From: Blasia pusilla
Lineage: Eukaryota
Direction of reading: 5' to 3'
Length of the DNA: 64,000 nucleotides
Assembly: GCA_050084515.1 (NCBI GenBank)
Contig: CM114271.1
Location: 37,076,001 to 37,140,000 of the forward strand
The notes below the pieces were generated by a model. It saw nothing but the letters and a program-made list of their open reading frames with translations, had not been told where the DNA came from and ran no database searches. Shown here one piece after another: positions 3,448 to 64,000 of the stretch; the stretch's first letter is position 1, and every line of letters starts with the position of its first letter. The translations under genes were made by a program, and so were the position numbers.

Positions 3448-4306
3448 GACACGCAATCTCTCCTTTCCTCTATGGGACTGCCTCCACATTATCTTAAATC
3501 ACTGATATACGCAATCTCTACTCTACATCACTGCCTCCACATTATCTTAACATACTGATAAGCAACTTCGACTCACTGCCTGCAGATATTGATAAGCAAC
3601 TTCGACTATCTGCTTCCACATTCTCGTCAAGCGCTGATATGCATTGTCTACTCCATATCAATACCTCCATATTATCTGAAATTGCTGCTACGGATTCTCT
3701 ACTCCATGTCACTGCCTCCACATTATCCGAAATCGCTGATACGCAATCTTTACTCCATATCACTGCCTCCAAATCATCTCAAATCGCTGACACGCAACGT
3801 CTAATCCATATCACTGCCTCCACATTCACTTCAATTGCTGGTACGCAATCTCCACTCCATATCACCGCCTCCACACTATCTTAAATCACTGACACGCAAT
3901 CTCTACTCCATATGACTACCCCCGCATTCACTTCAAGCGCTGATACGCAATCTCTACTCCATATGACTACCTCCGCATTCACTTCAAGCGCTGACACGCA
4001 ACCTCTACTCCATATCACTGTCTCCGCATTATCTTAAACCGCTGATACGCAATCTCTACTCCATATTACTGCCTCCGCATTATTTTAAAGCGCCCATACG
4101 AGATCTCTACTCCGTATCACTGCCTCCGCATTATCTTAAAGCTCTGATACGCAATCTGTACTCCATACCACTGCCTCCGCATTATCGTAAAGCGCTGATA
4201 CGCAATCTCTACTCCGTACCACTGCCTCCGCATTAACTTAAAGCGCTGATACGCAACCTCTACTCCGTATCACTGCCTCCACATTATCTTAAGGCGCTGA
4301 TACGCA
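3448..4306. repeat. 51-bp minisatellite, about 17 units
   Basis: Unit GCTGATACGCAATCTCTACTCCATATCACTGCCTCCRCATTATCTTAAAGC; unit starts at 4041, 4092 and 4143 give a period of 51. Confidence 0.92.
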
Positions 4307-7300: not shown

Positions 7301-8454
7301 TTCCTTAGAATGACTGAAACCCCACACTTCAAAACTCTGTGTGCTTGAGTATCTCCGAGTGTGCTTAGGTCAATATTAAATTGCGATTGACTTCAATTGG
7401 ATTCATTCCTTGTCCAAGTATGCAAGTGTACATCTATATTATTATTGTAGAGTGCCTTCTTGATATGCAAATACCTCTTTGCTTGACATGTGGCAAGGGG
7501 GAAGCAAGAAAATATCTCCTCCTAAACGGGCAGCCAAATTTATTTATTTTATCCAACATGATTAGTCCCGTCACTCCTGTGTATGGCACGGGCTGCCCAA
7601 TAGTATGCTTGATGGGCATAGGCTATTGCGTAATGGACAAACTACCCTTGCAATCAACACTATTGGGATCAAACCAAGGTTCAAGGAGTTTTCCCCCCCC
7701 CCGAACGGATACATTCCTAAACAGAGTGAGATTGATTTTTTTTTTTTGAATTTTTTTAAATCCAAACAGTTATTTGATACAAAATACAAAGAAACCCTTC
7801 ATTTTGAACCAATTTTTTCAAGGTTTATGAGAGAAACCTAATTTCTTCATTTCGACCATTCCCACACATAACTCCATTTATCCTAAACTCATGTGGTGCT
7901 GGACTCTTCAAGTAAAATGTCAACCTTTGGCATTTAATAATGTAGAAAAAAACAAAGAAAATTGGTCAGCAACCCATTTCCATCTACAAACGAACTTCGG
8001 ATGACATGCCAATGAAAAATTGTAGTGACCCCTAGACTCCCAAATTTGAACGTGAGACAACCCATCCATCTTTGGGAAACTCAAACTCTTAATCATGGAT
8101 CTAAATTCGAAGTTTGACTTGACTACAACACGTGATATCTTGTGGGATAAGAATCCTGAGTTGACAAGATTGTTCAACATGAGGCGCTAGTTTCCTAGAG
8201 GAAGACATCTTCTTCCTCTCTATGACTCTATGTGCATTGGGTCAATTTGGGTGGACTCGCCAAGAGCACTCTTTTTCTTTTCTTTTTTGTTGGTCATGAT
8301 GAAGTGTGCCTTCTACGAATAATGTCCCATACATCAAAAAAGCCTTTTTCATGGTACGTCAACTTCTTTGGTGTGAACTCGCCCCTTAGACCAACATTTC
8401 CAGTCTCGTAGAAAGTCCATGCCATGGATGCCAATCATTCCCCTTAACTTAGTC

Positions 8455-8990
8455 TAGTGGACTTGGAGGAAGAAAGTCCATGGCATTAATTCCACTTATT
8501 CCCCTAGTCCTATGGGCTTGGAGTAAGAAGCTCGATGCAATGGATTTAAAGTATTAACGTCGGTCTTATGGGCTTGGAGTAAGAAAGTCGATGCCATAGA
8601 TTTTAATTATTGCCCCGAGTCTCATGGGCTTGGAGTAAGAGAGTCGATGCCATGGATTTAAAGTATTAACGTCGGTCTTATGGGCTTGGAGTAAGAAAGT
8701 CGATGCCATAGATTTAAGTATTCCCCCGAGTCTCATGTTAGTCTCATGGACTTGGAGTAAGAAAGTCGATGCCATAGATTTTAATTATTCCACCACCCAC
8801 CACCCCCCCAACCCCAATCTCATGGGGCTTGGAGTAAGAGAGTCGATGATGGCCATGGACTCCAACTATTCCCCTCCGTCTCGTGGACTTGGACGGAATA
8901 CGAAAGTCGATGCCATCCGTTCCAACTATTCCGCTAGTCTCGTGGACTCCAAAAAGAAGGTGGAGGGCATGGATTCCCATCATATTAGCG
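8455..8990. repeat. ~56-bp tandem repeat with alternating unit variants
   Basis: TTGGAGTAAG anchor at 8518, 8574, 8630, 8686, 8752 and 8829; units alternate between ...GGATTTAAAGTATTAACGTCGGT and ...AGATTTTAATTATTGCCCCGAGT and degenerate at both ends. Confidence 0.85.
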
Positions 8991-30260: not shown

Positions 30261-30339
30261 TGGAAGTGCTCAAGGAGATACAGACAAAGTCAGTGTCGAC
30301 GCATATATCCATGTCCTTGGACTGACGTACATCCTATAA

Positions 30340-32180
30340 AAGGACTTCTCCATGTTGTCCCCATCTCCACCTTCTTTCTCATTTCCTCCCACTCCACTTG
30401 TGATCCGTACTTTCTTGTTTCTTCCTCCTCCCAACTCCACTCCCTCCTCCCTTACTACCCCGTCCACCCTTGCCTTGCCTTCCACCATGAACTATATGTT
30501 TGGGCCCCATCTTTTGCAATCTATGTTTGTGGATATATCCAAACTTGTCTATCTTAGGGACGAACTTGCCCATTTTTTTGCAACAATGATCAATACCAAA
30601 GAAATAACCAATTGTTCATTTGTCATGCGTTGATAGTTGAATAGAGAAGCAACCATCCTAGCATGCAAATTAATTAGTTTGGTTGAAAGTCTACTTACAT
30701 AATCTATATATAGGCATATAATTAAATTTTCATACATGCATATAGCATCAATAACATTCATTTGAATGTTTCTTACAAGGAAAAAACATATAAGAGAGGA
30801 ATAAGGCACTCTCATTTTCGTTGTGCTTATTCTCATTCTTCTTGTTCACGCACATTAATTCTCTCTCCTTTGTGTGTGTAAGTGTAGGCTTGTAGACAAT
30901 GTAGATATTACAAGATTTTCCATATAATTAATATAAACCCTTGGATTGGAATTCCAATCCAAAAGAGCATGCATGTTCTTCTCAGCGACCACAAAAACCA
31001 ATCAGAGTGTCATATTTTGCCTCCCATCTATCACAACAAAAATATCAAATTAGAACATAAGCCCACTAGACAACAATAGACATGATAGAGAAATGTGCAA
31101 AGTAAGATAATAACCATCATGATAATAATGCCTATATACATATAAATGATCACAAGTGCTTAGCCAAAGTGTTGAAATATAGGATATCATTACCCTCTTC
31201 CATAGTCTGGCTCCGAATTGGTCTTGAATCTACAATACCTTGAATATGTAAAAGACGCAACTAAATATGAAATGCTTGGAAGAATCTGATACTAAAGCGC
31301 ATGATCCTCCCATCTTTGGACCGGGTTGGAGAATCTAAATCTCCACTGATACAACTATAGGACTTAGGAATATACTATGTAAATTTATTAACATAATTGA
31401 TTGACATGGGTTTAGGATCTCTCACGACACTCTCTCAGAGCCCATTTTTCACGGTTGAGATTAAATCCTCCACAACATAAGCCGGATTAGGATGGGGCAT
31501 ACTCCATTGGAGGATGAATAGGATATTTTATAAGGAGGAAGAGCAAAATTTACTACCTGTCCTACCTTCTATTTCACAAACAACCTTTGGTGGACGAGTT
31601 GATCTAGTTAAATCTCAAGGTGGCTTCCCTCTATTGGATGATGTGGTGGGTGTTAATCTAGATTTTTTTCTAGTGTGTCGAGTTGCATGTATTCAAGGTT
31701 CTTTGAAAAATGGAGCAACATAAATAAACGAGTTAAGTTCTAGGTTAAGTTATAAAGTGAGAAGCGTAGTTGAAAGAGTAATGGGAATTTTTTAGTACTT
31801 CAATATGGATTTTGATATTTTCCTTAAAATATATGCTTACCATAATAACATTCTCTTACCAACTTACCCCTCGAACTCCTTCTTCCATTATCCATATTTA
31901 TGAAGGCCAAATTGATATGGTTGCACAAAAACAAACAAGTTCATCCCTATGACAGATATGGACGGAAAAGTTTAGACATATCCGTGGACATGAATTAAGA
32001 TGTAGAACTCACACTTATAGTTCATGATGGAAAGTATGACAAGGGCAAGTAGGGAAATAAGGGGGCAGGGAATGGAGGTGAAGGGAGGAAGAAACGGGAG
32101 CATATGGAACAGGAAGGCAAGTGGGACTATGGGAGGAATGAGAAAGAAGGAAAATGTGGGGTTCACATGGGCAAGTCCTT
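30340..32180. repeat. Diverged ~205-bp inverted repeat pair (30340-30545 and 31970-32180)
   Basis: AGGACTTCTCCATGT...CCTTCTTTCTCATT...TTCCACCATGAACTAT...GGATATATCCAAAC aligns with the reverse complement of 31970-32180. Confidence 0.7.
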
Positions 32181-32627
32181 CTGAGGTTGCATAGAAACGG
32201 ACAAGTCCAAATATGCCCAATGGGTCCCAGCCCATACCCAAGCCCGCCCCTGAGCTCGCCAAGCCCATTACGTAGACCCAGGATTGGCTACCCTCAGCCA
32301 TTTTTTAGCCCGCGGGCAATTTGTGGTAGGATTGCATGGCAAACTGGGCCCCCATTGGGCAGGATTAGGCCTGCTAAGGGCCCACGGATGAGCCCGCATA
32401 GAGCCCAAGGCTGAGCGTGCCTAATGGGGGCCTAGCCCGCCCTACGGGCCGCATGCGGGCTATAACGGGCTGGTCAAGCCGGGTCTATATTTCGGGCTCG
32501 TCGGACTCGGGTGCGGGCCACAAGTACCCGCGCCCGCATGGATATGTCCGTCCCTAGGATGAATATATACATGAACATGAACATGTCTGCAAACACGCAC
32601 TTTGTCTGTTTGCAACCTTGAGTCCTT

Positions 32628-33313
32628 TGTCACATCTGAGTAGCCGATAGGTCGAGATCTATCGTGGATAGGGCGTAGGAGCGAGCGAAGAATCTTGAGT
32701 GTAACTTTGTCCCACGGTGTCGGATGAGGTTGAAGATAGGTCCATTGTGTCAGGAACGTCATTTCTGAAAACTCTCTTGTTGAGGTCTTTCACAACCGGG
32801 TGACTTGTTGACCAGGTCACCCGCCCTTGGTAACCTGTGCGCGCACGTTACCAAGGGAATGGCTATTTTTAGGGGAAGAGCCTTTTGGCTCTTCCCAACC
32901 CTATATAAGAGAGGATCTCGAAGGTCACCTCTTTGGGTTAAGGGCCAAGGAGGTGACCTTCAAAAATAGGTTACCAAGAAGGAAGATGGCTTTCCTAAGC
33001 CATCTTTCTCATGTTGGGCCGTTGGAGCACCTCTCTTGTATGTGTGTGAGATAGGACTAGGGTGCTAGCGTTCGGATTCTTTGATAGCACAGGGTGGACG
33101 AGGCTTGATATGCCGATGTAGATTGAGGAGTGCAGTTTTAGGCCGGGTGTGCCATTTTTACTACTCTTTATTTTTGTTGTGCGATCTCCATGTATATGCA
33201 TGAGTTGATTTTTGTACATGTGTGGATCGACCCGTGTGTGGGGAAGATCGATGTTGTGTGGTGTAGATGTGATGAGCGATGTATGTTGTGTAGCAATATG
33301 TATGCGCACGACA
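32628..33313 (+). mobile_element. 686-bp non-coding insertion (solo LTR or internally deleted element) related to the ends of the 49287-63783 element
   Basis: TGTCAC...GCGCACGACA termini; exact 4-bp TSD CCTT (32624-32627 and 33314-33317); TATATAA near 32902; shares GCCAAGGAGGTGACCT.CAA.AATAGGTTA with ~49534 and its last ~45 bp with 63739-63783. Confidence 0.8.
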
Positions 33314-48430: not shown

Positions 48431-48822
48431 AGGTGGCATGTTTTGCATGAGCCTTTTGCACGAGTCTAACCGTGGTGCCTCTAACCCGAGGATGAATAGG
48501 CGCGAGGGTTTAATGAGGGGTGTATTATACGGGAAGGTAGTCATAATCATGGGTCAAACAAGAAAAGTCTTTGGTATGATCCATCAAAGTTAAAACTTAT
48601 ACTAGCTAGTGGTGAGATTAGGAAGGGCGTCAAAATCAACCGTGGGACTAACTCTAGGAGATGCGCGCATGTGTCTTGTGAATGGTCTTAGGTGAGAAAA
48701 CAATGTAGCTACTCGCGGGGACAAAGGCAAGGCAAGCAAGGTTTGAAACCTTGGAGCCAAGCGCCAAGTCAAGGACAAGAAGCAAGGAACACGTGATCTA
48801 TCAATATGGGCGAGAGACCATG

Positions 48823-49286
48823 TGTCGTGCGCGTACTTCCTTGAACGTGGATCTTATGTGTCGCAGAAGCTTGCATTCAACAGGTCAACCTCTTCTTACT
48901 GATCTACACCCAAACATATTCACATTAGCCACGGCTTTGGTCAACCAGCCTTGAACCTTTTGAGTCTTGGTCCAAGGCCATCCTTCAAGCTCAACTAATC
49001 TAGACGAGGTCATATACCGACATAATCTCTCACTCCCCAACACAGGCAAGTCCTTCAAGACTTGGTACAGACTTCATTGATAGTCTACCAAACTAAAATG
49101 ACGCTAGCGCATCTGGAGATCCCAACTACCAAACAGACCTCAAACAAGTCTTTAACCGAGACTCACTATTTGAGTCACGGGTCAAGGTCCAAAGTTGGTA
49201 TCCATAGTTGGCCCACTTGGACTTGGCTTTATTTTGAGCTACGGCCCCAGCTCGCCCTGCGGGCATTACACGGGTCTGATCGCGGG
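48823..49286 (-). mobile_element. LTR segment (minus orientation) related to the 61275-62299 LTR, interrupted at 49287
   Basis: TGTCGTGCGCGTACTTCCTTGAACG... aligns over roughly 250-300 bp with TGTCGTGCGCCTACTCTCCTTGAACG at 61275, with shared blocks CTTCAAGCTCAAC, CCAACAC.GGCAAGTC and AAGACTTGG.ACAGACTT. Confidence 0.75.
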
Positions 49287-51604
49287 TGTCACGACTGTTA
49301 GGATAGATCGGTGGGATCAAGCAGAGCGTCTGCACGAGTAGTGGAGGACAGACCTATGAGGTCGAGGATGACCTGTTGAGGCCCGGGGAAACGTGAGAGA
49401 GCAGGTTTCCCCTTTATTTCGGCTCATTTGGAGCCAAATAGAGAAACTTACTATTTCGGGTAAGTTTCCATATTAGAGATACTTTACTTTCCACTTTGGG
49501 AAGTGGCCCTTGACCCGCTACAGCAGGTCAAGAGCCAAGGAGGTGACCTGCAAGAATAGGTTATCGTTTAGAGGGCTTGGGAGAGGGAAGGGAGTATACC
49601 TCCAAGAGAGAGAGCTTGAGAGCTCATTCTCTCTTTGTTGAACCTCTTGGCATAAGGCGGCGGAGCTATGGTCCCTTGCCTTGTGAGTGTAACCCAAGCC
49701 TCTCATTAGGAGAGTGGGTTTGGTTTGACATGAGAGAGAGTGCACACCTTTGAGAGCTATGGTGTGAGATGGTGTAGAGAGAGATTGGATCTTACTTTAC
49801 AAAGAGAGAATGAATAAGTGAGAGAGCTTCATGGGGGCAGCTCATTGGGCACTCGCTGGTTTTGCAGGTTGGGGATCATATGCCCCGTTCAGCGGTTCAT
49901 GGGAGTGCTCACCGGAGCAAGAGCCGCTTACTTGTGATGTTTTCTTTGCCGATTTTTGTGTGGAAGAGTGGCGCGGGGAAGCACCGCCCAATTTTTGATA
50001 GGGTTTGAGTGTGGGGGCAGGTTTCCCCATGCTGGTTCTCTCGGGAGCACCATGTAGCTTGCTGATTTGTGTTCTCATATGTTTTACATTTTCATTGGGA
50101 GAAATCAGCGCAGAAGCGCTGCCGAATTATGTGTAGGAGAAAGAGACATTTGGCTTAATGACAGTCCCCGTAAATTTTTACTACAATGTTCGAGTCCAAA
50201 TATTTTTTGATGCTCTTGTAGATCGTGAAGTTGTGCACGTTGTGCAACAAACAATGCACAATTTGGAGTAGTGAGCAAAAAGTTATGATCAATCTTGCAA
50301 AATTGCCATTGCTAGGCGATTTTTAGGGTTAAATTGTTCAAACCCTAAGCCGCCGCCGCCGCCGGCCGTCGCCGTCATAGTCACCATCAACGGTCCGACG
50401 TTGACCATCAACCGTCATCGGTCCACCGTCAACCGTCACCGTCACCGATCGGCCGTCACCATCGACGGTCAACCATCACCGTCAACAGTCCACCGTCCGT
50501 TGTCCACCCTTTGGTTGCCATTGCCACCATTACAAAGTGGAGGGTCTTCCATGACGTTCGTTGATTCTCTAACTTGCGTTGCCACCACGTACTTTGTTTT
50601 GGCCACCACTGTCATCGCAGTTTTGTCATCAACCAATGATGGCAGATGATCTTCGGTTATGGTGTTTGAGTTTTGATTTTATTCTTCTATGTTGTGATTG
50701 GTAGCCGCTCGATGACGATCGAGTACCGTGCCGTGACGCCCGTAGCCGCAATGTGCCGCCGATTGCTGCGCCGTGCCGCTCGTGGCCGCACCGCACCGTC
50801 TCGATCGCGGAACCGCTCCTTCACTAAGGAGCAGAGAGTGAGAAATTTCTGATTGAGGAGGGTATGCCGCCGAGTGTCGTGCTGTTTGTAGCCGTTCCGT
50901 GCGGCCAGTGCCACACCGGACCGCTCGACCTGCACCGCACATCGAGGAGGTTGAGCAGCGTCAGTACAAGAGGCATACGACTTGCTAATTCGAGGAGTTG
51001 TCTTCACGACCGAGTGGGGGTCGAGATTTGCAATTGCTGAGGAGCGACATCGACATGTGTTCAGGTTACCCATTCTGGTCCTTTATCCCGCACGTGTGGG
51101 GGATTCTCGGATTTGGGTAGTTTATTTGGGGATATTTGTTGTGTGGATGCTGAGAGCATCATTCATGTATGTGGTTCAGGGGACATAAATCTGTGTGGGA
51201 TGTCCGGAGTTGAGGGTAGGTTGTCGATGAGATGATAGTCTGGTCGATTTTCCGCACCACGCCGCGTGTTGCCGCATGTTACACGTCTCGGGGAGGGAGA
51301 GTGTAGATTTAGTGCCGCATGTTTGGGATGAGTGATTGAGTGATTACTCACGAGGTTGAGAGTGATTAGGTGAGAGGGGCACGAGGGTCATCACGGTGTC
51401 CGTTTGGGACTTTGAGAGGCGAGGTGGTGAACCCGAGAGTAGCTCTAGAGGTTTGACGCGGAGTGGCGCGAGGTTCCGAGGGTCTCCATGTAAGGGACCA
51501 CCTCGACCTCCTTTTGTGTCATCGTCAGAAAAGGGGAGGGTGTAGAGGAGTTTGTGAGCACATTGCTACACATTGTGAGTGGTCCTACCAGTTGGGCGTA
51601 CGAG

Positions 51605-53083
51605 ATGGACAACCGGGGTAGAGGACCGCGTAGGTTTTCTGGTGCATTATGCACGATTGAGTTGCACGATTTCATAGTAGAGTTTAGGAGTTGGTGTGAC
51701 TCCCAGGGGGCCAGAAACTCTAGAGAGTTTAACCCGTTTACAGCATGGAATGGTATGTTCCAGCATTTAGAGGGGATGCCCATGGACGATTACCATGAGT
51801 TCTCCCACATATATGGCCAGGAGATTGAGGCATGGTGACTCTACTATGACCCACACTTTGTGTCATGGATGGAGCCATTCCTAGATGAGGAGGAGGAGGA
51901 GTTAGGAGAGGCTAGTTCCTCTTCCACTAGTGATGTTTTAGGAGGGGTCACTCACACTAGAGCAGTTGAACCATCTAGTCGGGTTCATCCCAGGTTCAAC
52001 CCCGTGGTTGAGTTCTTCGCTAAGTTGAGGGCCAGCTACTAAGGGGTACCGATGGAGAAGTTGCGGAGCATCCACGACTTCCTGAGGCGCCCGGATGAGA
52101 GTTTACATGAGGCTTACACTCGCTTGCGTCGGTTGATCAACATCACTCAAGGGGTGACGGAGGCTCAGGCTATCCACTCATGATACGCGATGCTGGACCG
52201 GACCCTGCAGACACGGGTGCGGGAGGGGGTGCTTCTTATGAACACCTCCCCTATATTGAGAGATTTTTTTAGGACCGCCAAGAACATTGAGCCCAACATG
52301 GCGGAGGAGAGCGTAGCCACCATGGGTTCTGGGCGAGAGCAGTCACGATTGGTTGCACCACCTGTGCAGCAACGTGGACTTCGAGATAGGTCGACTGTGG
52401 CACCACGAGCTCAGGGAGGATACCAGGTGGCTGTGCCACAGAGACCTACGCCTTCATATGCGGCTCAGCAGCAGACGCCTACTATTACTTGTTGGTCATG
52501 TGGTGGAGCCCATCATCAGCACGATTGCACTTGTCAGGGTCATGGACGTGTGCCTCAGCATGGAGGAGGAGATGGTGCTGCACTAGGAGGTTATCAATGT
52601 GACTATTGTCAGAGGTATGGTCATACACGCGCCAGGTGTTTCAGTCTACATCATGAGTTACGTACGGACCGAGGGCCATAGAGGGCACCAGAGCGAGTAG
52701 CCGGTCGGGGTGGGCCTAGAGATCGTGCACCAGGTGGTCCCGTTGGGGGACGAGGAGCTAAAGTTGCCCGACAGGGTGGTGGAGCTGCCCGTGGAGGAGG
52801 TAGAGTACCACCACCTAGACGCGCCAAGGGAGACGACGGACGTGAGGCTGGGATGGCTGCTCACATACAACAGCTACAGGAGCAGATTGTCGTTATGGCA
52901 TTGAACTTACTCGATGCCGGATTTGTGGCATCGACATCATATGATGCAGCCAGAGATATGGAGGATCCTGGTTGGATGTGCCGGGTTGCCCAGATGGAGG
53001 CCGCCGCAGTTGTGATGCGTGGAGCAGCCGCAGAGTTGGATCCACAGCGAGGGGAAGCCAGAAAACATACTAGGCTTCCTTAG
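51605..53083 (+). pseudogene. Gag-like region with two zinc knuckles
   Basis: One frame from the ATG at 51605 with internal stops; LRRPDESLHEAYTRLRRL, CWSCGGAHHQHDC, CDYCQRYGHTRARC, then an Arg/Gly-rich stretch. Confidence 0.75.
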
Positions 53084-53559
53084 TCTTTCACGTTGTCTAA
53101 AGCGATGAGGACGCCATCGATGGGTCCTCATCAAAGTTCGTGGAAAGTTGGTGATGTTGTTGGTGTGCACGCACGGAGGGCGATGGGAGAAGCGAGTGCG
53201 ACGAATCCTATTGTTGATGCTCATGAGTGCATGTGTCGAGCACGTTGTTGGGGACGGCCATTGTTGTGTACTGCACTCCTTTATTTTCTGCTTCCGATGT
53301 TATGACGTTGGGGGGTACGCCCGCTGAGGCTTTCAGCTGGCCGCTTCATTATGTGAGCGCGGAGTTCGAGTTCCTACATCACGTTCAGAGGTGATTGCAT
53401 AGGAGGTGATGGACTTGCCCTTGGAGCGGATGCTTGGGCCATCCATGTCAGATTCATGGCAAGCTACGGCTTCCTGGATGGCGGAGATGCCCGCTAGACC
53501 CGCGATAGAGCATGCGATGGCTTCTCTTGGTGTTGTGTTGCTGGATAACCAAGGAGAGG

Positions 53560-53950
53560 TCTTCCAATTGGTGAGTCCCGGAGATAGAGCTTTTAGTCCG
53601 CAGCGCGTCTTGTTGGATTCACGAGCGCAACCCTTGATGTTGGGGAAAGCGTCATTGAGAGGATACGATGAATGACGCTTTCCATTTCGGATACAAAAGC
53701 CAATGTGGAGCGTTGTCCATTTCGGATACAAACATCCTTGGATGGAGCCAGTACCACACAATATATCACCCGACATGAGGTCGTGGTGAGGATTCTCCCG
53801 GGACATCCTACAGATGAGTCCGTGGTGCGAGCCAAGGCGATAGTGATTGATATAGAGTCCTACGACGTCTTGGTTGGTGGAGCAGTGTTATACCCGATGG
53901 GGTTTTCCGTGGATTACTGGGAGGATTCAGCGTCCTACAGACCAGGATGA
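53560..53950 (+). pseudogene. Retropepsin-like aspartic protease
   Basis: RVLLDSRAQPLMLG (degenerate DSG active site) and a downstream YDVLVGG motif, with one frameshift between them. Confidence 0.7.
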
Positions 53951-54334
53951 CAGTCAGGTGATGGGCGCCTTAGCTCATTACCTATTCGATTCATATGTGC
54001 AGTGATCGAGCGACGGCCAGGAGAGGTGGCGACCTTAGCAGCATTTAGCAGTGCCATCACTTGGCCTAGTGATTTGATTGAGGGACATGTCCATGCAAAG
54101 GATACTCCCGTTCCTGACATTTCTATGGAGAGGATTATTATGGTAGCCGCATCATTCCGTGGAGGATAGGTGCCATTGTGGGGCTCCACTGAGGAGCTTC
54201 GACGATTGGCAGATGAGCACATGCAGACCGCGTGGAGCGAGGCATTTGCACCGGAGCGTGAACCCGAGGTAGCAGGGAGTGCTACGATGACACCCTTGGA
54301 TACCACACCCATTGTGTGGTGTATCACGGAGGAG

Positions 54335-55280
54335 GGTATTCGAGTGTTAGATCTCTTTGGAGGGATTAGCACCGGGTTAGCTGTTGTTTTGCAGGCATGA
54401 GTGCGAGTGCAGCAGTACCTATATGTGGAGAGTGATGATGTTGCGAGGCGCGTCTCACTACGACATATGGCACAGTTACGCCTATGTTTTCGAGAATTAT
54501 TGTCTACGTCTACGGTACAGGAGTACCAGAGTTCCCTACCAAGGGATATTTCATTGCTCGGGGCGCAGGACTTAGAGCGGGTAGGGACCATTGATTTGGT
54601 CATTGTCGGTTGGCCATGACAGGGCCCATCGAGTGTTGGACGAGGCAGTGGGTTGGCTGACACTCGGTCCATGTTGTTTTGGGAGATGTTGAGGGTCTTA
54701 CGGTAGTTGCAGGAGCATCAGTCTCGTTCTCCAGCCTACATTCTAAAGAATGTGCCAATCTTAGCAGACTTCAGGTCACGGGTGGTGACAAGTGCTTATC
54801 AGGTGCGTGCCCGGATCGGCCCAACAATATTCTTGGATGCGTCAAGTGTAGGTTCTAGAGCCCATCGCCCGCGTCTATGGTGGACCAAATTGGTGCCCAA
54901 TGCGGTGTTACGCAGGGCGTATGCGAGAGTGGAGCGCCCCTCCCATTTGTTAGTGGATTCCATTCTGGATCCAGGTCGTCGATTACAGGCAGTGAGGCAC
55001 GATGATCGACCACCGTTGACTGTGGTCAACAGGGTAGGCAAGTCGCGGGCAACCTTGCCCACGTTTGTGAGTTTTCCCGCTTCCTATGCATATAAGGAGG
55101 CCGGTCCTGGCTTGGTTTGGAATGACCAAGTTCAGCGGTTGGTGGAGCCCGACGTCGATGAGAGAGAGCAAGCGATGGGATTTCCCACAGGAGTGACGGC
55201 AATACCGTCAGTGTCAGAGGCATCACGACGCCATGTCTTGGGTCAAGAGATGGACCTGAACTGGTTGACATGGATCCTCA
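54335..55280 (+). pseudogene. C5 cytosine DNA methyltransferase domain, DNMT3-like, inside the retroelement polyprotein
   Basis: Motif I IRVLDLFGGISTGL, II YLYVE, III RDI, IV IDLVIVGWP*QG (catalytic Cys codon now TGA at 54617), VI YILKNV, VIII RAHRPRLWWTKL, IX EREQAMGFP, X RRHVLGQEMDL; all in one frame and in the DNMT3 motif order. Confidence 0.9.
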
Positions 55281-55639
55281 GCTTGGGAGTGGCTGAGCAG
55301 CGCCGTATGAGATCGGGACAAATCACAACGGTTGCGTTGGTGAGCCCCATGCCTACCGAGACGGTGGAGGCAGTGGCTGGGGGTGAGACCCGAGGAAATC
55401 TACACACTATGGGAGATCGGGAGAGACACCCTTGGACTTCTTGGGATGTTTTGCATGTATGCTTGGAGATGATAGCCACAGCATCGAGCGTGGTTCCGGG
55501 CACTGCACGTGGAGGAGATTAGAGTTTGCAGTTGGCTACAGGAGAGCGGCTGAGTAATGTTGTTCGAGACGGGATTGCACCATGGCAACCACCGATACCC
55601 GCGTCGGAGAGTCCTACCGTAGTCACGATGGAGACTTGG

Positions 55640-57065
55640 GAGCCAGATATGGGCCCTAAGTTGACAGGAGGAGAGCGGCGCCGGATACATCCGTTCGTCA
55701 GGAGTTATAGGAGCTGCTTTGCGTTTGGCATGGAGGATTTGGGTACGCTCAAAGGACCGGGGATCCGCATTGAGTTGTCGAATGATACGCCGATCTTCCG
55801 ACGACCCTACAGGTACAGTGATATGGAGAGGGCTCTGATTCAGAGTAGGAGCCACGACTTGGTCGGAGCTGGACTAGTGGAGATGTCGCATGGGGAGTAT
55901 GCATCTGCCATTGTCATGCCCGCCAAGAAGGATGTGCATGGCAACTGGACGGATAGGCAGATGTGTGGGGATTACCGACCTATCAATCAGTAGACGAAGT
56001 TCGATAAGTATGCCATGCCCACCCCTGAGGAGATATTTGATACAATTGGTCACGCAAAGGTCTTCAGTTCATTGGATTTGCGAGCCGGATATCATCAGCT
56101 ACCTATTAGATTGGAGGACAAGAAAAAGACAACATTTTGGGGCATCGATCCTCACGGGAAGGATTATTTGTACCAGTGGCGGTTCTTACCATTTCGGTTA
56201 AAGAACGCCCCGGCTGAGTTTCACAGGGTCATAGATAGGATCTTGGCTGGTTTGGATTTTGCTAGGTGTTATATTGATGACATCATAGTCTTTAGCGCCA
56301 CGGTTGAGGAGCATGAGCGACATCTAGAGGAGGTGTTTCGACAATTGCAATTACATGGGTTGAAGCTACATCCAGGCAAGTGCAAGTTCTTCTACAACCA
56401 AATTGAGTACTTGGGTCATACGATATATCCAAGGGGCCTTGGTGTTCAGCAGACGAAGGTAGAGGCTATCCCACGCATTCCACGCCCTACAGATGTGAGC
56501 CGTGTTTTCGCATTCATGGGATTGGCGAACTTCTATCAGTGGTACATCAAGGGATTTAATTTGATTGCGAAGCCGCTAACCTTGCTGACCAAGATGGATC
56601 ACGAGTGGCACTGGGGGCATGAGCATGAGCAAGCATTTCAGTTGCTCAAGGACAAGTTGACGTCTGCGCCCATCTTGAGGAGACCAATCAGGGGGCATCC
56701 TTTCCACTTGCACACAGATTGGAGCATGTTGGGGCTTGGAGCGGTGCTCACCCAGCATGATGATGAGGGTAGAGAGTTTGTGGTGGCTTATGCTAGCCTC
56801 TCGAACGACGGTGCAGAGGCAAAGTACAACTCGTTTGAGGATGAGTGATTGGCTGCAGTGTGGGCTGTCGCGCATTTCAAGTGTTACTTATTCGAAAATC
56901 CCTTTACCATCATCACTGATTATCAACCACTGAAGTGGCTGATGGAGTCCAACAAGATTACATGGAAGTTTGCGAGATGGGCTCTGTTGTTGCAAGAGTA
57001 TATTTTCACGTGGTACATAGATCTGGGACGCTCAACCAAGATGCAGATGGGTTGAGTCGTAACCC
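55640..57065 (+). pseudogene. Ty3/gypsy reverse transcriptase and RNase H
   Basis: PIFRRPYRYS, MCGDYRPIN, FSSLDLRAGYHQL, LPFRLKNAPAEF, CYIDDII, LHPGKC, LHTDWSMLGLGAVL, VVAYAS, IITDYQPLKWL and RWALLLQEY. Confidence 0.95.
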
Positions 57066-57438
57066 ATGCCCGAGTCAGTGAGATGCGACTGGAGCTCGAT
57101 GGCATGGAGAGAGTGATGAGGAGTCAGTGCCAGGATGGCACGCGTCAGCCTATTTAGGCATGTTGGCTATGGAGAGCCAGAGTGTGGAGACTTCGATGGC
57201 GAGGTCTAGTGGAGAGTCCTTGGATCCCGAGGCCAATGCGGAGACAACAGGTGGCCGAGATATTCATGCTGATGGAGTAGTCTTGGAGTACCTTCGTATT
57301 GGCAGCGTTGCGAGCACCGTGGATGTTAGAGAGCGGGATCGGATCCTACAGTGGGCCAGAAGGTTCCGTTGGGAGGGGACACATGTTTTGAGGGTTTGGG
57401 AGAATGGTAGAGTACGCGTAGTGCCGCATCCTCCGTAG

Positions 57439-57516
57439 AGAGCACGACTACTGCAGCATGGTCACGACGAGTTAGGTCACTTTGGGGTGAAGCAGACGTA
57501 CAGCTTGCTCCTAGGC
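57439..57516 (+). pseudogene. Integrase HHCC domain, N-terminal half (outer element)
   Basis: LLQHGHDELGHFGVKQTYSLLLG; continues at 62301 with MHTDVQQFVAMCMMC. Confidence 0.85.
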
Positions 57517-60500
57517 AATCTGTGCGCACGCCACCAACCATCCAGGAATAGTCAGGAAGTCGTGTAGGCCGTCGCAGACTCTCTCGTCGGCACAAACCTC
57601 CTCAACTTGCTAAACCGATCAACTATCACAAGTATAGCGTTGTATCCCTCAGATTCTGGAAGACTCGTAATGAAATCCATGCTAATGCTTTGCAAGGGTT
57701 CCTCCGGGATTGGCAAAGGATGAAGTAAACCTTGTTTCTTCGCATAAGACACGCAGTGATTAAGCTTAAGGAGTCACGATGTTTTCACATATTGAGCAAC
57801 ATCTTCCTTCATGTTGGGCTAGAAGAACCTCTTAGACAAAACAGCAAGAGTGGATTTCTCTCCTTTGTGTCCCGCCAAAGGTCCATCATGACATTCCACA
57901 AACACCTTGGTCCGTAGCTTGCCTTGGCCTACATAGATCCTGCTCTGCTTAAACCTTAGCAAGCCATGTCTCAAACTCAGATTGGCCACCTTCTCGCCCG
58001 CTTTAACTTCCCAAGGTACTCCTCGCTTGCTCATCCTTCATGTATCCTTCACTTAATCCTTCTTTCCAGGTCTGTTTGATTAGGGAACATTGCTCTCAAC
58101 ACTTGTGTCGTCGATGGCATGTGTTCATCCCTGCGACTTAACGCATCTGGAATGACATTGTCTTTCCCCGGCTTGTGGATTAGCTCCACATTCATCAACG
58201 CCAAGGTATCATGCCACCGAAGTTGTTTTGGCGTCACGCGATCCTGGGTCTCAAAAGACTTGAGTGATATGTTATCGGTGAATACTCGAGTCTTGTGAAG
58301 TCCCAAATAGTGACGCCACTTCCTCAAGCAATGAACCACCGCAAACAACTCTTTCTCATGAGTAGGCCATCTCCTTTCGGTGTCGGTAAGCTTCTTGCTT
58401 TTGTATGCTACAGGTCTCCCTTTTTGCACCAACATTCCTGCAATCGCGAAATCACTAGCATCCGTGTGCACCTCGAACGGTTGTTCAAACTCCGGCAGCT
58501 TCAGAACTGGTTCCTGCGAGAGGATCTCTTTGACTCGATTGAACGCTTTATCCACTTCCTCGGTCCATGTAGTATTGGAAAACTTTGCGGTCCAATCCGT
58601 GAGAGGTTTCACTATGCCCGAAAAGTTCTTCACGTATGTCCGTAAAATCGACACTCGATGAACCTTCTCATCCCCTTCACCGTGGAAGGCGGTTCCCATT
58701 CGGCAATCGCGCTTACCTTTTCCATGTCTGGACTCACTCCATCCGCACTAACCACATGCCCCAAGAACTTGATCTTTGTCAAACCGAACTCACTCTTATC
58801 CGCATTCGCATACAGCTTGTTTGCCCTAAGTTTCTCAAACATCGTTTTCAAATGTCGAGCGTGCTGCTCTAGTGTTTTCGAATAGATGAGTATGTCATCT
58901 ATATAGATGATCACAAACTCATCCGTCTCCTTGTGAAAGATGGAGTTCATCAAAGTGGTGAACGTCGGAGGCGCATTACAAAGACCAAAAGGCATTACTA
59001 CAAACTCAAACGAACCGTATCTCGTCCTACAGGTAGTCTTCTCTACATCCGCTTCGGCAATCCGAATCTGATAATATCCTGATTTCAGGTCAATCCGGCT
59101 GAAATATTTGGCACCTGACAATCGATCAAAGAGGTCATCCATCCTTGGTAGAGGATAGTTATTCCTTACCGTCACTTTATTCAGCGCCCGATAATCAACA
59201 CAGAGTCTCAACTTCCCATCCTTCTTCTTGACAAAGAGGACGGGCGCCCCATAAGGTGACTTGCTTGTTCGGATGTAACCCCTCTCTAGGAGTTCACCCA
59301 ATTGTTTCTTCAACTCAGCAAGTTCCTCTTGATTCAACCTATATGGTGCCTTTGAAGGTGGTTGAGATCCTGGTATCACCTCAATCTTATGATCAACCGC
59401 CCTATGTGGTGGCAACTCAGTCGGAAGCTCCTTAGTCAACACATCTTCAAAATTCTTTCACAACTCTCTTGAGTGTTTCAGGGATCCCTCTTGAAGCTGA
59501 GTTCTGATCTCTACATCTCGCGCTTGCATCATCCTCTACTCGTCTCATCAAGCAAAGGAATCCTTCCTCTAACTCGGCCAAACTTGTCCTCGTGATGGCG
59601 TTCACCAACTCCGTCTTTCTAGGCACCTCACGAACCAATCTGACGTCCGTCCGTTTGCCGTTAACCAAGACGCTCAACATCAAAGGTCTCCGCCTCAGTT
59701 CCACCTCATACGCATCCAAAAACGTGTTCCCCAAGACTCCGTCGATTCCGTCCATCTCGCAAACTGTAAAATTCTCCTTCAACTCAAATACTCCGCATCT
59801 CACAACTAGCCCTAAAACCAGATCTGATGTCTGGTGGGACTTGCCTCCCGCGAATCCTACCCTAATGGGTTCATCCGCCTTGGTGGTTGGCAATCCCAAA
59901 GTTTTTACGATTCTCGGACTCAAGAATGAGTGCAAAGCACCTGTATCAACGAGCAACATCACATCGGGATAAGCGATCTTGGATCCTAGGTAAACTAAAT
60001 TGGGCGTTCTCTTGGTGACTTGTAGAGATGTATCTAGATCTCCCTCCGATAAATGCTTAGCGGCAAACGCAATCATACTCGGTTTACTAACCTTGGGCCT
60101 AACACATTCCTTAGCCATATGCCCGGGTTCGCCACAATTGTAGCAAATCACTTTGGCATGCATTGACTTCGTAAACGGCGGACCCTTTGGCTTCGCGTTG
60201 AGTACCACTCGTTTTGCCGCTGGGGCGAGAGACCCTCCGTGGTCGCGCTCACCCCATTCCAAACCCTCTTGGATGTCCCTTTGTTCTTTCAGAACTTAGA
60301 AAACTTTTTGTCTCAAAGGGTTTGGTGTTGGACTTCATCGTCCCCAATCCGCTCGGCTAGTCTCAAGAGATACGCGCGACGCCTCTCGGGATGTGAGGCA
60401 TACAAAGAGAGCCTTCTCGGCACTCGGTTTGAGCCCACTTAGGAAGATCACCTTTTAGTATGTTCATCCGTGGAAAGTGCACTCATGAGCGCACTAAACT

Positions 60501-61122
60501 CTCGCACATAAGCGCCAAGTGATCCACTGGCGCAACCTCACCACCTCCATGCCATCGCGGTACTCTGATATTCGGAGTGAATCGGTTCCCAATCAACTCC
60601 TTGAAATCTTCCCAACTCAACGTTTTCCCACAACCTAGATGTTCTTTGCGGTGAGCCGCCCACCAATGGAGAGCGTGATCCTTCGAAACGTGACGCCTGA
60701 TCACCTTGTCTTGTTCATCGCTTTTGCGCTTTGAAATAGAGTTCGAGTTCCGTTAGAAACTCACTCACTTTCCGAGAACGCCCCATTCCTGTGAATGGCG
60801 TTGGCAAATTAGTCTTACAAAGCTTCTTGCCAGAACTAGAGGCTCCATTTGACTTGAATTCCGATATCACCTTGCTCTGTTCAACCATTTGGTCCGCCAT
60901 CACCTTCATCAATCCCATCATTTGGGTATAAAAGGCCGGATCGTTTAAGTTTGGACCCGAAGGTCCCGCGGAAAGATTTTCGGTTGGAACATCCTCATGT
61001 CTGGGACTCGGCACTTCGGGAGTCGCAAATTCCACCTCCGGCTCTCGGTCCGTCATTGATTCGTCTCTTGGCTTCTTTGCTTTGACTCGCGGTTTCCTCG
61101 GTTCTTCGCCCTTGGTCGCCAT
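57507..61122 (-). pseudogene. gag-pol of the nested element
   Basis: ORF pieces 61122-60715, 60704-60483, 60262-59447, 59442-58630, 58699-58049, 58034-57819 and 57752-57552, separated by frameshifts and stops. Confidence 0.9.
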
Positions 61123-61259
61123 TTGCGAGTCGTCGCCTTTTCTCAGATCTCCTCCTCGCCTCTTGCGTTCCTCCTCGGCATCGCGGTCTTCCGGCTACCT
61201 TGAGTTCTCCCCAAACGTCCCGATCTTCAACGACCCCAAGTTCACGCTCATCAAGGAAT

Positions 61260-61272
61260 GGCTTTGATACCA
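61260..61272 (-). promoter_or_regulatory. Primer-binding site, tRNA-iMet type
   Basis: TGGTATCAAAGCC on the - strand, 2 nt after the LTR end ...GCGCACGACA. Confidence 0.85.
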
Positions 61273-61274
61273 CG

Positions 61275-62299
61275 TGTCGTGCGCCTACTCTCCTTGAACG
61301 TTAATCTTGTTTGTTGCGGAAGCGTGCGTTCAGTAGGTCACGCTCTCAACGCTGATCTGCATCCAAACACGCACTTTGGTTAGTCGGGTCTTGGATCAAT
61401 CAGCGGGATTACTTTCCAAGTTCTCGTCTCGGACTCTCTCTTCAAGCTCAACCTTCCTAGTTTCGCGGTTTCCAACACGGGCAAGTCTCGAAAGACTTGG
61501 GACAGACTTTCTGGTCGATTCAGGAACCTGAAACGGCGTTTCGCGCTAGCGGTTCCTTCGTCCGATGAACATCCAATGAGTTCCTCACCAAGACTCGCAC
61601 GAAGTGAATCTTGGGTTGGAATCCAAGTGTGGCGTACAAAGTCCACTCCCTTGGATCAGGTTTGGGTTTCGGGTTTCCGCGCCAAACTCCCGTTTCATCC
61701 CGTGCCTCTGAAATGTCGTTTGGCGCCCAAAGTGGGGTTTTGTTTCCCGAGACATCTCAGAGAAGGTACTCCCCTTACTAGTACTTCTGGGGATCTCCGG
61801 GGCCCCTACATTTAGGAAAGACACAGGCCTCTCCATTGGCCCTCAACCCGATTGCTCTCTGAATCGTTTTCGGCCAATATCTCAGCCTGTACTTATGCGT
61901 TTGCTGAGATCTTTGGTGCGTTGGAAGCGTCTTAAGATCAGCTTTCCAACGCGCTCTTACTTGTTCCAAACGCATATCGGAGCTCAACGTTATGGTCCCA
62001 AACACAGTCAGATTCTCCCAAACGCTAGTCGTGTTCCAAACTGATTCTTACCTCTTTGGCAACCACCTCCCAAGACTCAACTCATCTCAAGTCTCGGCTC
62101 GCGTTTGGTCTAGGTTTCCTGGTCGCGACCACTAACGCATGAAATGCACAACTCTGTTCTGCGTTTTGTCTCTTAGACTTTTCCAAGAGAGTCTTCCAAA
62201 CGCCTCTCCAAAGCGCAAACCTCGCAACGTGAGTTCCTTTGAGTTCTGAAGTTTCGCTTGGCGCGTATTTGGTGTTGTTTGGTTATGAGGGTCGCGACA
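61275..62299 (-). repeat. 5' LTR of the nested element (1025 bp)
   Basis: The - strand reads TGTCGCGACC...GCGCACGACA; bounded by the PBS on one side and the resumed outer integrase frame on the other. Confidence 0.88.
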
Positions 62300-63467
62300 C
62301 ATGCACACTGACGTTCAGCAGTTTGTTGCCATGTGCATGATGTGTGATCGAGTCTGAGCATCATTCAATGCTCCGACTCCACAGTTGCATCCATTATCGA
62401 TCATGGGCCTAGGGTATAGATGGAATTTGGATTTTGCAGGACCTTTGCCTTTGACGGAGCGTCACAATCGTTATGTGTTGGTGATGGTCGAGCACTTCTT
62501 GAAGTGGATCGAGTTGGTTGCATTTCCTGACAAAGCGAGTGAGGGAGTAGCTTATGCCTTCCTTGACAGAGTGTTGAGTCATTATGGCACACCGGCTGAG
62601 GTGTTGACAGACCATGGTACCGAGTTTCGCGGTGAGTTCCAGGCCTTGTGTGATCAGGCGCTGATCAATCACCGCACGACTTTGTGAGATCATCCCGAGG
62701 TGGATGGATTAGCATAGAGAGTTGTGCAGACGGTGAAGAGGGGTCTACACAAGTATGGCTTGCAGAGAGGTCAACTAGGAGATTGGGACCTCCAGTTTCC
62801 GTGGTTGGTGATGGGATACAGATTCAGCAGGCATGCATCCTTAGCATCTTTTTCATCGTACTTGCTACTTTATGGCCGAGAGCCAGATTTACCAATGGCC
62901 ATTTTTCAAGATGCTGGTGAGGTGCTGGACCGTGATGACCCAGATGTATGGATGTGAGCATGTTCTCAGAGGGCTGAGTTGTTCCGGAGAGTGATGTCAA
63001 TGGCGTTCAAGAACTTGGCGATTGCGCATCATTGGAATACGTTGAGGTATGTGACTTTTCGGAGTGGTGGTTATCGACCAACTATCTGGAGGTTTCATCA
63101 GGGAGATTATGTCTACTTGCAGCAGACGGCATCGACGATATTGGATGTGACTACACGGCGCACTATCCTGAGAGTGCGTGACGTTTTGCCATCAAATGTT
63201 CTCTTGCTGGAGGGACGCGATGGTATGGTATGGAAGGACCATGTGCGTAATTGTGCGTCATGTCACCTTCCTAACATTGATGGTACAGTAGATCCGAGCT
63301 CAGTAGTAGCTCTTGCAGGCTTCCGTTGTATGTTGTGTGGTTCTGCTCGTGGTGCGGCCACGATGCTAGTCTGTGATGGATGTTCACGAGGTTGGCATAT
63401 GGCATGTGTGACGCCACCTCTCATTAGGGTTCCTCGGGGACGATGGATGTGTTTTAGATGTACATAG
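62300..63467 (+). pseudogene. Integrase core and C-terminus with PHD finger (outer element)
   Basis: CMMC, WNLDFAGP, VLTDHGTEF, DGLA*RVVQTVK (catalytic Glu codon now TAG), RFHQGDYVYL; C4HC3 PHD at 63327-63461: CMLC...VCDGCSRGWHMAC...WMCFRC. Confidence 0.92.
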
Positions 63468-63783
63468 CGGAGATACTAGGTAGGTTTTGAGTCCGACTTT
63501 TTCTATGACATGGATGACAGGAAGGCACCTAACGATGGGGCCACATGAGCACCCGGCCTTTCTGCTCTTAGCGTCCTAGAGATGTATGTTGTGGTAGGTA
63601 GGGATAGATGGCTATCTGGAGTTAGAGGAACCTAACCACCAGTTAGGGGGACGATTGGAGATATTTTGGTACTTCTTGCCTCTGTGTATGGATGCCATGA
63701 GTTAGCATGGGATTGTGTGTGTTTATGAGTGTGTGTTCGATGACAGCAATGTATGTTGTGAAGCGATGTGTATGCGCACGACA

Positions 63784-64000
63784 TGGGCCCAATGCAGATC
63801 TGACGTAAGCCAGTGTGGGCTTAGGGCGGGCTACAAGCGGGCCGATTCTTTCCTGGCTCCCTTAATCTGAGCCCTAGGGTTTGGGAAAAATCCGAGCAAA
63901 GGACCCATTGGGCATATCCGTCCCATGGACGGTCATATCCACTTCCATGCAACCGTGGTCCAATTAAACCCCAAAGCTAACTTCTCAATCCATCACATGC
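63784..64000. repeat. GGGCC-rich repeat, possibly the continuation of the LTR interrupted at 49287
   Basis: Composition resembles 49240-49286; GGACCCATTGGGCATAT...ATGCAACC also matches the reverse complement of ~32185-32227. Confidence 0.4.

Follow-up and report, generated by a model that had tools for sequence, protein, structure and literature searches.

A Ty3/gypsy family of Blasia pusilla with a DNMT3-like domain and a functional long terminal repeat that is probably permuted relative to its integrated ends

In the textbook scheme of retrotransposon replication, integrase uses the very ends that reverse transcription makes, and joined circles are by-products. In IS3/IS30-type circle-junction transposition, a DDE enzyme opens abutted ends that lie 2 to 3 bp apart; Ngaro/PAT elements imply a joined or circular intermediate; and Tf1/Sushi-Tcn1 elements have ordinary paired long terminal repeats (LTRs). 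Here, we analyze an element at positions 49287 to 63783 of a 64,000-nucleotide stretch of Blasia pusilla DNA, referred to as the window (assembly GCA_050084515.1, contig CM114271.1, positions 37,076,001 to 37,140,000, forward strand). The element belongs to a high-copy Ty3/gypsy family, with about a thousand or more ends in the genome and the domain order Gag, protease (PR), DNMT3-like methyltransferase, reverse transcriptase (RT), RNase H (RH), integrase (IN), and PHD finger. Unlike this element, IS3 and IS30 are DNA transposons without reverse transcription. The family also differs from Ngaro/PAT elements in its DDE integrase, 4-bp target-site duplication (TSD), gag-PR-RT-RH-IN order, primer-binding site (PBS), and polypurine tract (PPT); no Pfam match to a tyrosine recombinase was found in 53 window reading frames of ≥70 aa (most, not all, of the listed frames), and a match to the integrase domain rve is present. 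To our knowledge, the DIRS order has no integrase-type TSD, another point on which this family, with its 4-bp TSDs, differs.

Among described elements, KnitGypsy-Dnmt3 of Klebsormidium nitens (de Mendoza et al. 2018, PMC5890265) is the closest in layout, and its figure legend states that it has DIRS-like repeats with Gypsy domains. Both it and the Blasia family have a DNMT3-related domain in a Gypsy pol and repeats in the arrangement A-coding-B-A-B. The parts of that account covered here do not give a TSD, PBS, PPT, PHD finger, or mechanism, whereas the Blasia family has a TSD, PBS, PPT, and PHD finger. No Klebsormidium sequence was among the matches of our homologue search, and the likeness is by description only. 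A preprint (10.64898/2026.05.21.726589), in the part covered, only names streptophyte Gypsy-DNMT3 elements. Ngaro/PAT elements, which are split-direct-repeat members of the DIRS order, have the same A-coding-B-A-B layout according to a figure legend (PMC5890265). Tf1/Sushi and plant Tcn1 elements of the Ty3/gypsy group are described, in the parts of PMC6317226 covered here, as self-priming elements that lack a tRNA PBS and use their transcript's own 5′ end as primer; the Blasia family likewise has no tRNA PBS, and its primer is predicted to come from the 5′ end of its own transcript. Those elements mostly carry chromodomains, whereas a PHD finger and a DNMT are present in this family and its ends are permuted, and a Pfam scan of the window reading frames gave no chromodomain match. 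In foamy virus and human immunodeficiency virus 1, according to the covered parts of PMC1180852 and PMC4372172, a DDE integrase opens the palindromic CA-nn-TG junction of 2-LTR circles in double-stranded DNA. There, the palindrome is the circle joint and the route is a side route; here, the LTR itself contains the site, the true joint is at another place, and integration seems to depend on this route. Our search of the open-access literature, with Repbase and subscription journals outside its scope, found no published description of split or permuted LTRs with a DDE integrase. The layout is already known from KnitGypsy-Dnmt3; the replication and integration route appears to be undescribed.

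Ends, repeats, and copy forms of the family

The window element begins with TGTCACGAC at 49287 and ends with GCGCACGACA at 63783, flanked by CGGG and TGGG, as a first-pass annotation of the window had claimed, and genome matches confirm that these are real element ends. All 29 other top matches to 49200-49700 begin at query positions 87 to 90 (49286 to 49289), and 29 other top matches to 63400-63900, fetched as loci, stop at query positions 382 to 386; the best 40 genome matches per end begin or stop within a few bases of the window termini. A first look with the 5′ and 3′ end queries returned 6464 and 5775 candidates, respectively, which are not copy numbers. The annotation also held that the window copy lacks an LTR pair, and self-BLAST of this copy indeed finds no direct repeat between the 5′ leader and the 3′ trailer. 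The best local alignment of the two has a score of 58, compared to a shuffled mean of 50, and 24 of 200 shuffles equal it. The diverged repeat put forward as a candidate (51100-51240 versus 63570-63720) is a chance similarity, with a score of 32 compared to 31 for shuffled sequences and 217 of 500 shuffles as good. Given the shuffled alignments, we rejected any leader/trailer repeat, direct or inverted. The inverted match between the termini is only 4 bp.

The full form of the family is A1-internal-B1-nn-A2-B2 with a 4-bp TSD, where A and B are the repeats found once each in the window copy (Table 1) and nn is a two-nucleotide spacer. The window copy has the form A-internal-B, without A2-B2. 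Among the 29 other top 3′-end matches, 22 run on into nn-A, 19 of these onward into B2, and the other 7 end with B, as does the window copy. Genome-wide, 786 of 1032 PPT-B ends are followed by nn-YRTC; both counts cover several subfamilies and are lower bounds from exact matches, and mutation also lowers the 786. One 4-bp TSD surrounds A1...B2 exactly in 8 of 10 full-length copies and at 3/4 bases in one more, and A-internal-B copies have an exact TSD in all five resolved cases (L038, L043, L044, L053, and L054). These counts leave out two A-internal-B candidates whose 5′ ends were not reached (L034 and L041) and 7 of the 17 other fetched copies with a trailing A-B, in which no A1 start was usable. 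Solo units consisting of A joined directly to B (A/B units) also carry TSDs and TG...CA ends. Identity between A1 and A2 is 95.6% when both belong to one element and 91.2% when they come from different elements (n = 9). In each of 73 B1/B2 pairs, both members are of the same subfamily, and the gain in their identity inside one subfamily is tiny (0.933 versus 0.930, permutation P = 0.006). One metagenome locus (L165) has the order PPT-B-GT-A/B, with a different-looking A and the same PPT-side join; two others (L166 and L167) stop at B, and L168 and L169 (47% identity) have no recognizable repeats. Members of the family are frequently nested in each other (L013, L041 upstream, L072, L095, and L120), and in L013 a family-2 element sits inside the PPT of a family-1 element.

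These copy forms bear on the two explanations offered in the first-pass annotation. The first is an element with RT and integrase that has no LTRs and whose only terminal feature is a short inverted match, for which A/B units would be MITE-like derivatives (miniature inverted-repeat transposable elements) adjoining by chance. It draws on the window copy and the five other A-internal-B copies, whose TSDs are exact (3/4 in the window), and on the two metagenome loci that end at B. We regard it as very improbable, given the proportion of PPT-B ends that run on into nn-YRTC, the tiny inverted match, and the greater likeness of A1 and A2 within elements; the single TSD around A1...B2 in 9 of 10 copies contradicts it. 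The second explanation is that a conventional internal domain was inserted once between the halves of a solo LTR, and solo units made of A and B, bounded by TG...CA and a TSD, do occur. Since the same borders recur in hundreds of independent copies, in several families and in L165, and independent insertions with TSDs of their own have this layout, this explanation is contradicted for the window copy and is the least credible of those considered here; a single insertion of this kind could be the ancient origin of the lineage. The architecture is shared across independent insertions, as the annotation had suggested checking by collecting copies and defining termini and TSDs. It had also reasoned that normal paired LTRs in other copies would undo its reading: repeats are present in other copies, but in split form and not as normal pairs. 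A right-flank search for an empty site gave no match across the insertion junction.

The order of coding regions in the window element is gag, protease-like, C5 methyltransferase, RT, RH, rve integrase, and PHD finger. The closest solved relatives of the RT and integrase are those of Ty3, and the gag-PR-RT-RH-IN order with an rve integrase is that of Ty3/gypsy elements, as are a PBS after the 5′ repeat, a PPT before the 3′ repeat, TG...CA ends, and a fixed 4-bp TSD. The PBS is self-complementary and not of the tRNA type, and the integrated element, which takes the form A-internal-B-nn-A-B or A-internal-B, is not flanked by two complete LTRs.

Priming signals and the joint between A and B

A PPT adjoins B1 in 1032 genome matches, and in a sample of 60 B-nn-A junctions, 57 are preceded by the internal 3′ region. 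The 60 sites were taken in listing order out of 179, skipping sites already in hand. At the other border, ACAAAGAGAGAATGAG stands directly after A1 in family 1 and is the complement, over 16 nt, of 49623-49638, which sits about 25 to 30 nt below a TATA-like box. In family 2, CATCTTTCTCATGT is paired with ACATGAGAAAGATG below CTATATAAG (14 nt), in family 4, AGTTCTTTGAGT is paired with ACTCAAAGAACT (12 nt), and in family 5 the complementarity persists as a core of 9 nt. The primer and PBS sequences differ among these four families, their complementarity is kept, and each primer lies about 25 to 30 nt below a TATA-like box. The presumed RNA 5′ end, a predicted position, is complementary to the PBS and covaries with it, and self-priming of the Tf1/Sushi-Tcn1 kind is a candidate mechanism. 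When the RNAs were folded, mean primer/PBS pairing probability exceeded 0.5 in 18 of 30 family-1 copies (0.56 in the window copy), was at least 0.74 in all 13 family-1 copies with 16/16 pairs, and reached 0.77 to 0.97 in five of five copies of families 2 and 4. With the PPT beside B1 and the self-priming site beside A1, the predicted functional LTR is the permuted unit B-nn-A.

These signals can be compared with what would be expected of DIRS/Ngaro-like copying, in which the RNA would run from A1 to B2, the A/B joint would be inherited, B1-nn-A2 would template both ends, and integrase would act in the recombinase's place. Figure legends in PMC5890265 give split-repeat elements of the DIRS order the same A-coding-B-A-B layout, but such copying predicts neither a PBS and PPT placed exactly at the A/internal and internal/B borders nor covariation of the primer. 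Three raw RNA runs contain sense-strand reads over the whole element, and transcript ends are beyond their resolution. In the last bin (A2 position 291 onward plus B2), read depth drops from 105-172 to 16-35. The bins are 334 bp wide, this one lies at the edge, the majority of reads are <95% identical, and it is uncertain whether the organism matches; the drop lends weak support to an RNA 3′ end before B2 and to that extent counts against an RNA that reaches B2.

In families 1, 2, and 4, the A/B joint connects exactly the base that precedes the PBS to the one that follows the PPT. Among the 60 sampled junctions, the joint is blunt in 28 and has an extra A, which is the first PBS base, in 16; the rest have small changes, deletions, or no call. 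The distribution of blunt and +A joints has no tree signal (13 changes versus a shuffled mean of 13.3, P = 0.56), and the spacer has some (17 changes versus 20.8 shuffled, P = 0.022). Pieces of the PBS and leader (2 to 22 nt) are retained in 23 joints and pieces of the PPT in 8, and 13 of these 31 joints (12 independent, one duplicate) lie behind internal-B1-nn-A2. The 12 independent joints point to fresh joining because the parent template has no PBS or PPT beside the joint. Neither PBS and PPT pieces in joints behind A2 nor joint types scattered over the tree are predicted by DIRS/Ngaro-like copying. Judged from these sequences, the A2/B2 joint behaves like a fresh join of cDNA ends. Four A/B joints (L119, L123, L222, and L024) hold fold-back copies of primer/PBS sequence. 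One locus, L007, starts at base 1 of B (L007:1369 onward) and runs B-nn-A-PBS-internal, with a 3′ end that is not resolved; in this single case, the start is like the predicted unpermuted left end of the cDNA, as if captured without integrase. The occurrence of B-nn-A-PBS was assessed in the 60 sampled junctions and L007.

A proposed route from cDNA to insertion

We consider it likely that this Ty3/gypsy retrotransposon has a functional LTR in circular permutation with respect to the ends of its integrated form. The RNA would start inside A1 at about 49623 and end inside A2. Minus-strand synthesis would start from the first 12 to 16 nt of this RNA, paired, as the covariation suggests, with the PBS that follows A1, and plus-strand synthesis would start from the PPT before B1. 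Given this PPT and self-priming PBS, ordinary reverse transcription with ordinary strand transfers would yield a linear cDNA, B-nn-A-PBS-internal-PPT-B-nn-A, with the ends ATTGG... and ...CTTT, not TG...CA. The cDNA ends would then be joined end to end to form the A2/B2 joint, as the genomic joints show. The LTR contains both integrated ends, TGTC and GACA, facing one another across the spacer as GACA-nn-TGTC, and the DDE integrase would open this site in the upstream LTR with a 2-nt stagger and insert those ends; cutting 3′ of each CA, 2 nt apart, would yield standard integrase ends and lose the spacer. The expected product is A1-internal-B1-nn-A2/B2 with a 4-bp TSD, and this layout and TSD are observed. 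That joining precedes insertion, as a 2-LTR circle, falls just short of an even call, and joining after strand transfer, through host repair of the A2/B gap, seems to us somewhat more doubtful. The first-pass annotation had called for a non-standard strand-transfer route under the first of its two explanations. It was right that the element has no ordinary LTR pair and needs an unusual route; strand transfer itself looks conventional, and the oddity is the position at which the cDNA is opened before integration. The A-internal-B form, which lacks A2, is a frequent dead-end product. It could originate from a 1-LTR circle, from a cut at both sites, from annealing of B with B, or from later recombination between B1 and B2, all of which give an identical sequence.

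Several observations weigh against this route. One of the 10 full-length copies has no TSD. Primer/PBS pairing probability is <0.5 in 12 of 30 family-1 copies, and folding the window copy from 49622, one base earlier, favors a competing helix. The tree used for the joint tests (44 rows) is mostly unresolved, with 4 of 41 branches starred, and solo units that retain PBS or PPT pieces, such as L124, could be internal deletions. The spacer is no fixed palindrome (AC 19, GT 14, GC 12, AT 7, other 8; n = 60). Finally, the mirror product A/B-nn-A-PBS-internal is absent both from the 60 sampled junctions and from 23 pattern candidates among 1328 A/B joints, of which 20 are chance flank matches and 3 are tandem extra A copies (L083, L084, and L095). 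The spacer mix is consistent with a spacer that was originally GC (palindrome GACAGCTGTC) and was then eroded through transitions of the CHG type, together with AC inherited in some lineages; at other CHG sites, CHG-type transitions average 0.17 and reach up to 0.41.

The absence of the mirror-permuted form led us to reject a circle with two equal junctions cut at random. A symmetric circle with two identical sites but no mirror product requires an unexplained bias. Either the upstream site is chosen, lying 130 bp from the cDNA end compared to 512 bp for the downstream site, or mirror products collapse to A-internal-B, which would cover at most about a quarter of ends. We speculate that strand-specific methylation by the element's own DNMT marks one site; this is a candidate because CAG/CTG is present in the site and the inherited old strand is on a different side in each of the two LTRs. 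The missing mirror form also fits DIRS/Ngaro-like copying, where rebuilding the ends on a linear molecule gives one orientation. With the borders, primers, and joints set against it, we judge such copying unlikely and favor the permuted functional LTR.

Window features, related elements, and implications

Table 1. Coordinates of features in the 64,000-nucleotide window
Feature	Position	Strand	Comment
Solo A/B unit of related family 2	32627-33313	+	Exact CCTT TSD
Left TSD, CGGG	49283-49286	+	3/4 bases match right copy; family TSD is 4 bp
Repeat A, 512 bp	49287-49798	+	Distal U3 plus R/U5 half of putative permuted LTR; starts TGTC (integration end); recurs as A2 at 3′ end of full-length copies
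TATA-like box	49592-49600	+	At position where family 2 has CTATATAAG; putative function
Presumed transcript 5′ end and self-primer	49623-49638	+	Complementary to PBS
Self-priming PBS	49799-49814	+	Directly 3′ of A
5′ leader	49815-51604	+	
gag with Cys/His knuckles, then aspartyl-protease-like region	51605-53950	+	tblastn to P0003/P0011; stops and frameshift; protease label presumed from LDS/LDSG motif
C5 DNA methyltransferase domain, DNMT3-like	54340-55290	+	Approximate bounds; stop at catalytic Cys position
RT and RH	55637-57007	+	Ty3 is closest solved relative
RH-integrase linker and integrase start	57004-57511	+	Up to nested insertion
Nested conventional Ty3/gypsy	57512-62297	-	LTR 61275-62297; tRNA-type PBS 61260-61272; gag-PR-RT-RH-partial IN; one LTR; not part of host element
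DDE integrase core (rve) and C-terminal PHD finger, then stop codon	62298-63467	+	PHD finger 63327-63461
PPT	63644-63653	+	Directly 5′ of B; TAGGGGGGCG in most copies
Repeat B, 130 bp	63654-63783	+	Proximal U3 half of putative permuted LTR; ends GACA (integration end)
Right TSD, TGGG	63784-63787	+	

The first-pass annotation had described the reading frame as largely intact, which does not hold: each segment aligned to Marchantia relatives has 1 to 6 stops, in addition to frame changes and the stop at the catalytic Cys position of the DNMT. A separate minus-strand gypsy is nested in the integrase region (Table 1). With its premature stops and the 4.8-kb nested gypsy, the window copy is dead. 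It is also unable to replicate because an RNA without A2 has no terminal R repeat. The closest named homologues are liverwort and moss proteins, from Calypogeia, Marchantia, and Sphagnum. One intact relative (P0001), 58% identical across the window DNMT fragment, matches PF00145 and is closest to DNMT3A/B. Two annotated Marchantia proteins (P0003 and P0004) comprise gag-PR-DNMT and end there, which points to a stop or frameshift ahead of RT in the copies or families concerned. Two polyproteins of about 2,020 aa (P0023 and P0024) have the order RT-RH-DNMT-IN-PHD, with the DNMT placed elsewhere than here (PR-DNMT-RT).

The LTR of the nested gypsy runs TGTCGCGAC...GCGCACGACA and is followed by 2 nt and a tRNA-type PBS, which we take to be that of initiator Met. 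Its last 10 bases are the last 10 of repeat B, so the ordinary and permuted families share an integrase end. The left flank of the host element at 48814-48916 is a 76-78% relative of the nested gypsy LTR end. Elsewhere in the window, there are tandem arrays at 3463-4368 (51-bp unit, about 17 copies) and 8410-8944 (unit of about 56 bp), and nested inverted repeats (I1, I3, and I7) around about 1.5 kb at 30280-32609, which is possibly a DNA transposon or foldback element.

Several named C5-methylase proteins of Marchantia, Calypogeia, and Sphagnum are pieces of this lineage, which affects counts of methyltransferase genes, and the permuted layout explains why LTR finders miss or misdate such elements. 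The genomic joints indicate an uncoupling of cDNA ends from integration ends in a family that is transcribed and successful, at least a thousand of its ends being present in one genome. We tentatively suggest, with slightly more doubt than belief, that the DNMT3/PHD Gypsy lineage of liverworts, mosses, and probably algae made the 2-LTR circle, which ordinarily leads nowhere, its obligatory integration substrate, that its integrase site moved to the middle of the LTR, and that one of the two identical sites then became marked. The family offers a natural setting in which to study whether opening and inserting end-joined cDNA can be a routine activity of integrase, a matter of long debate.

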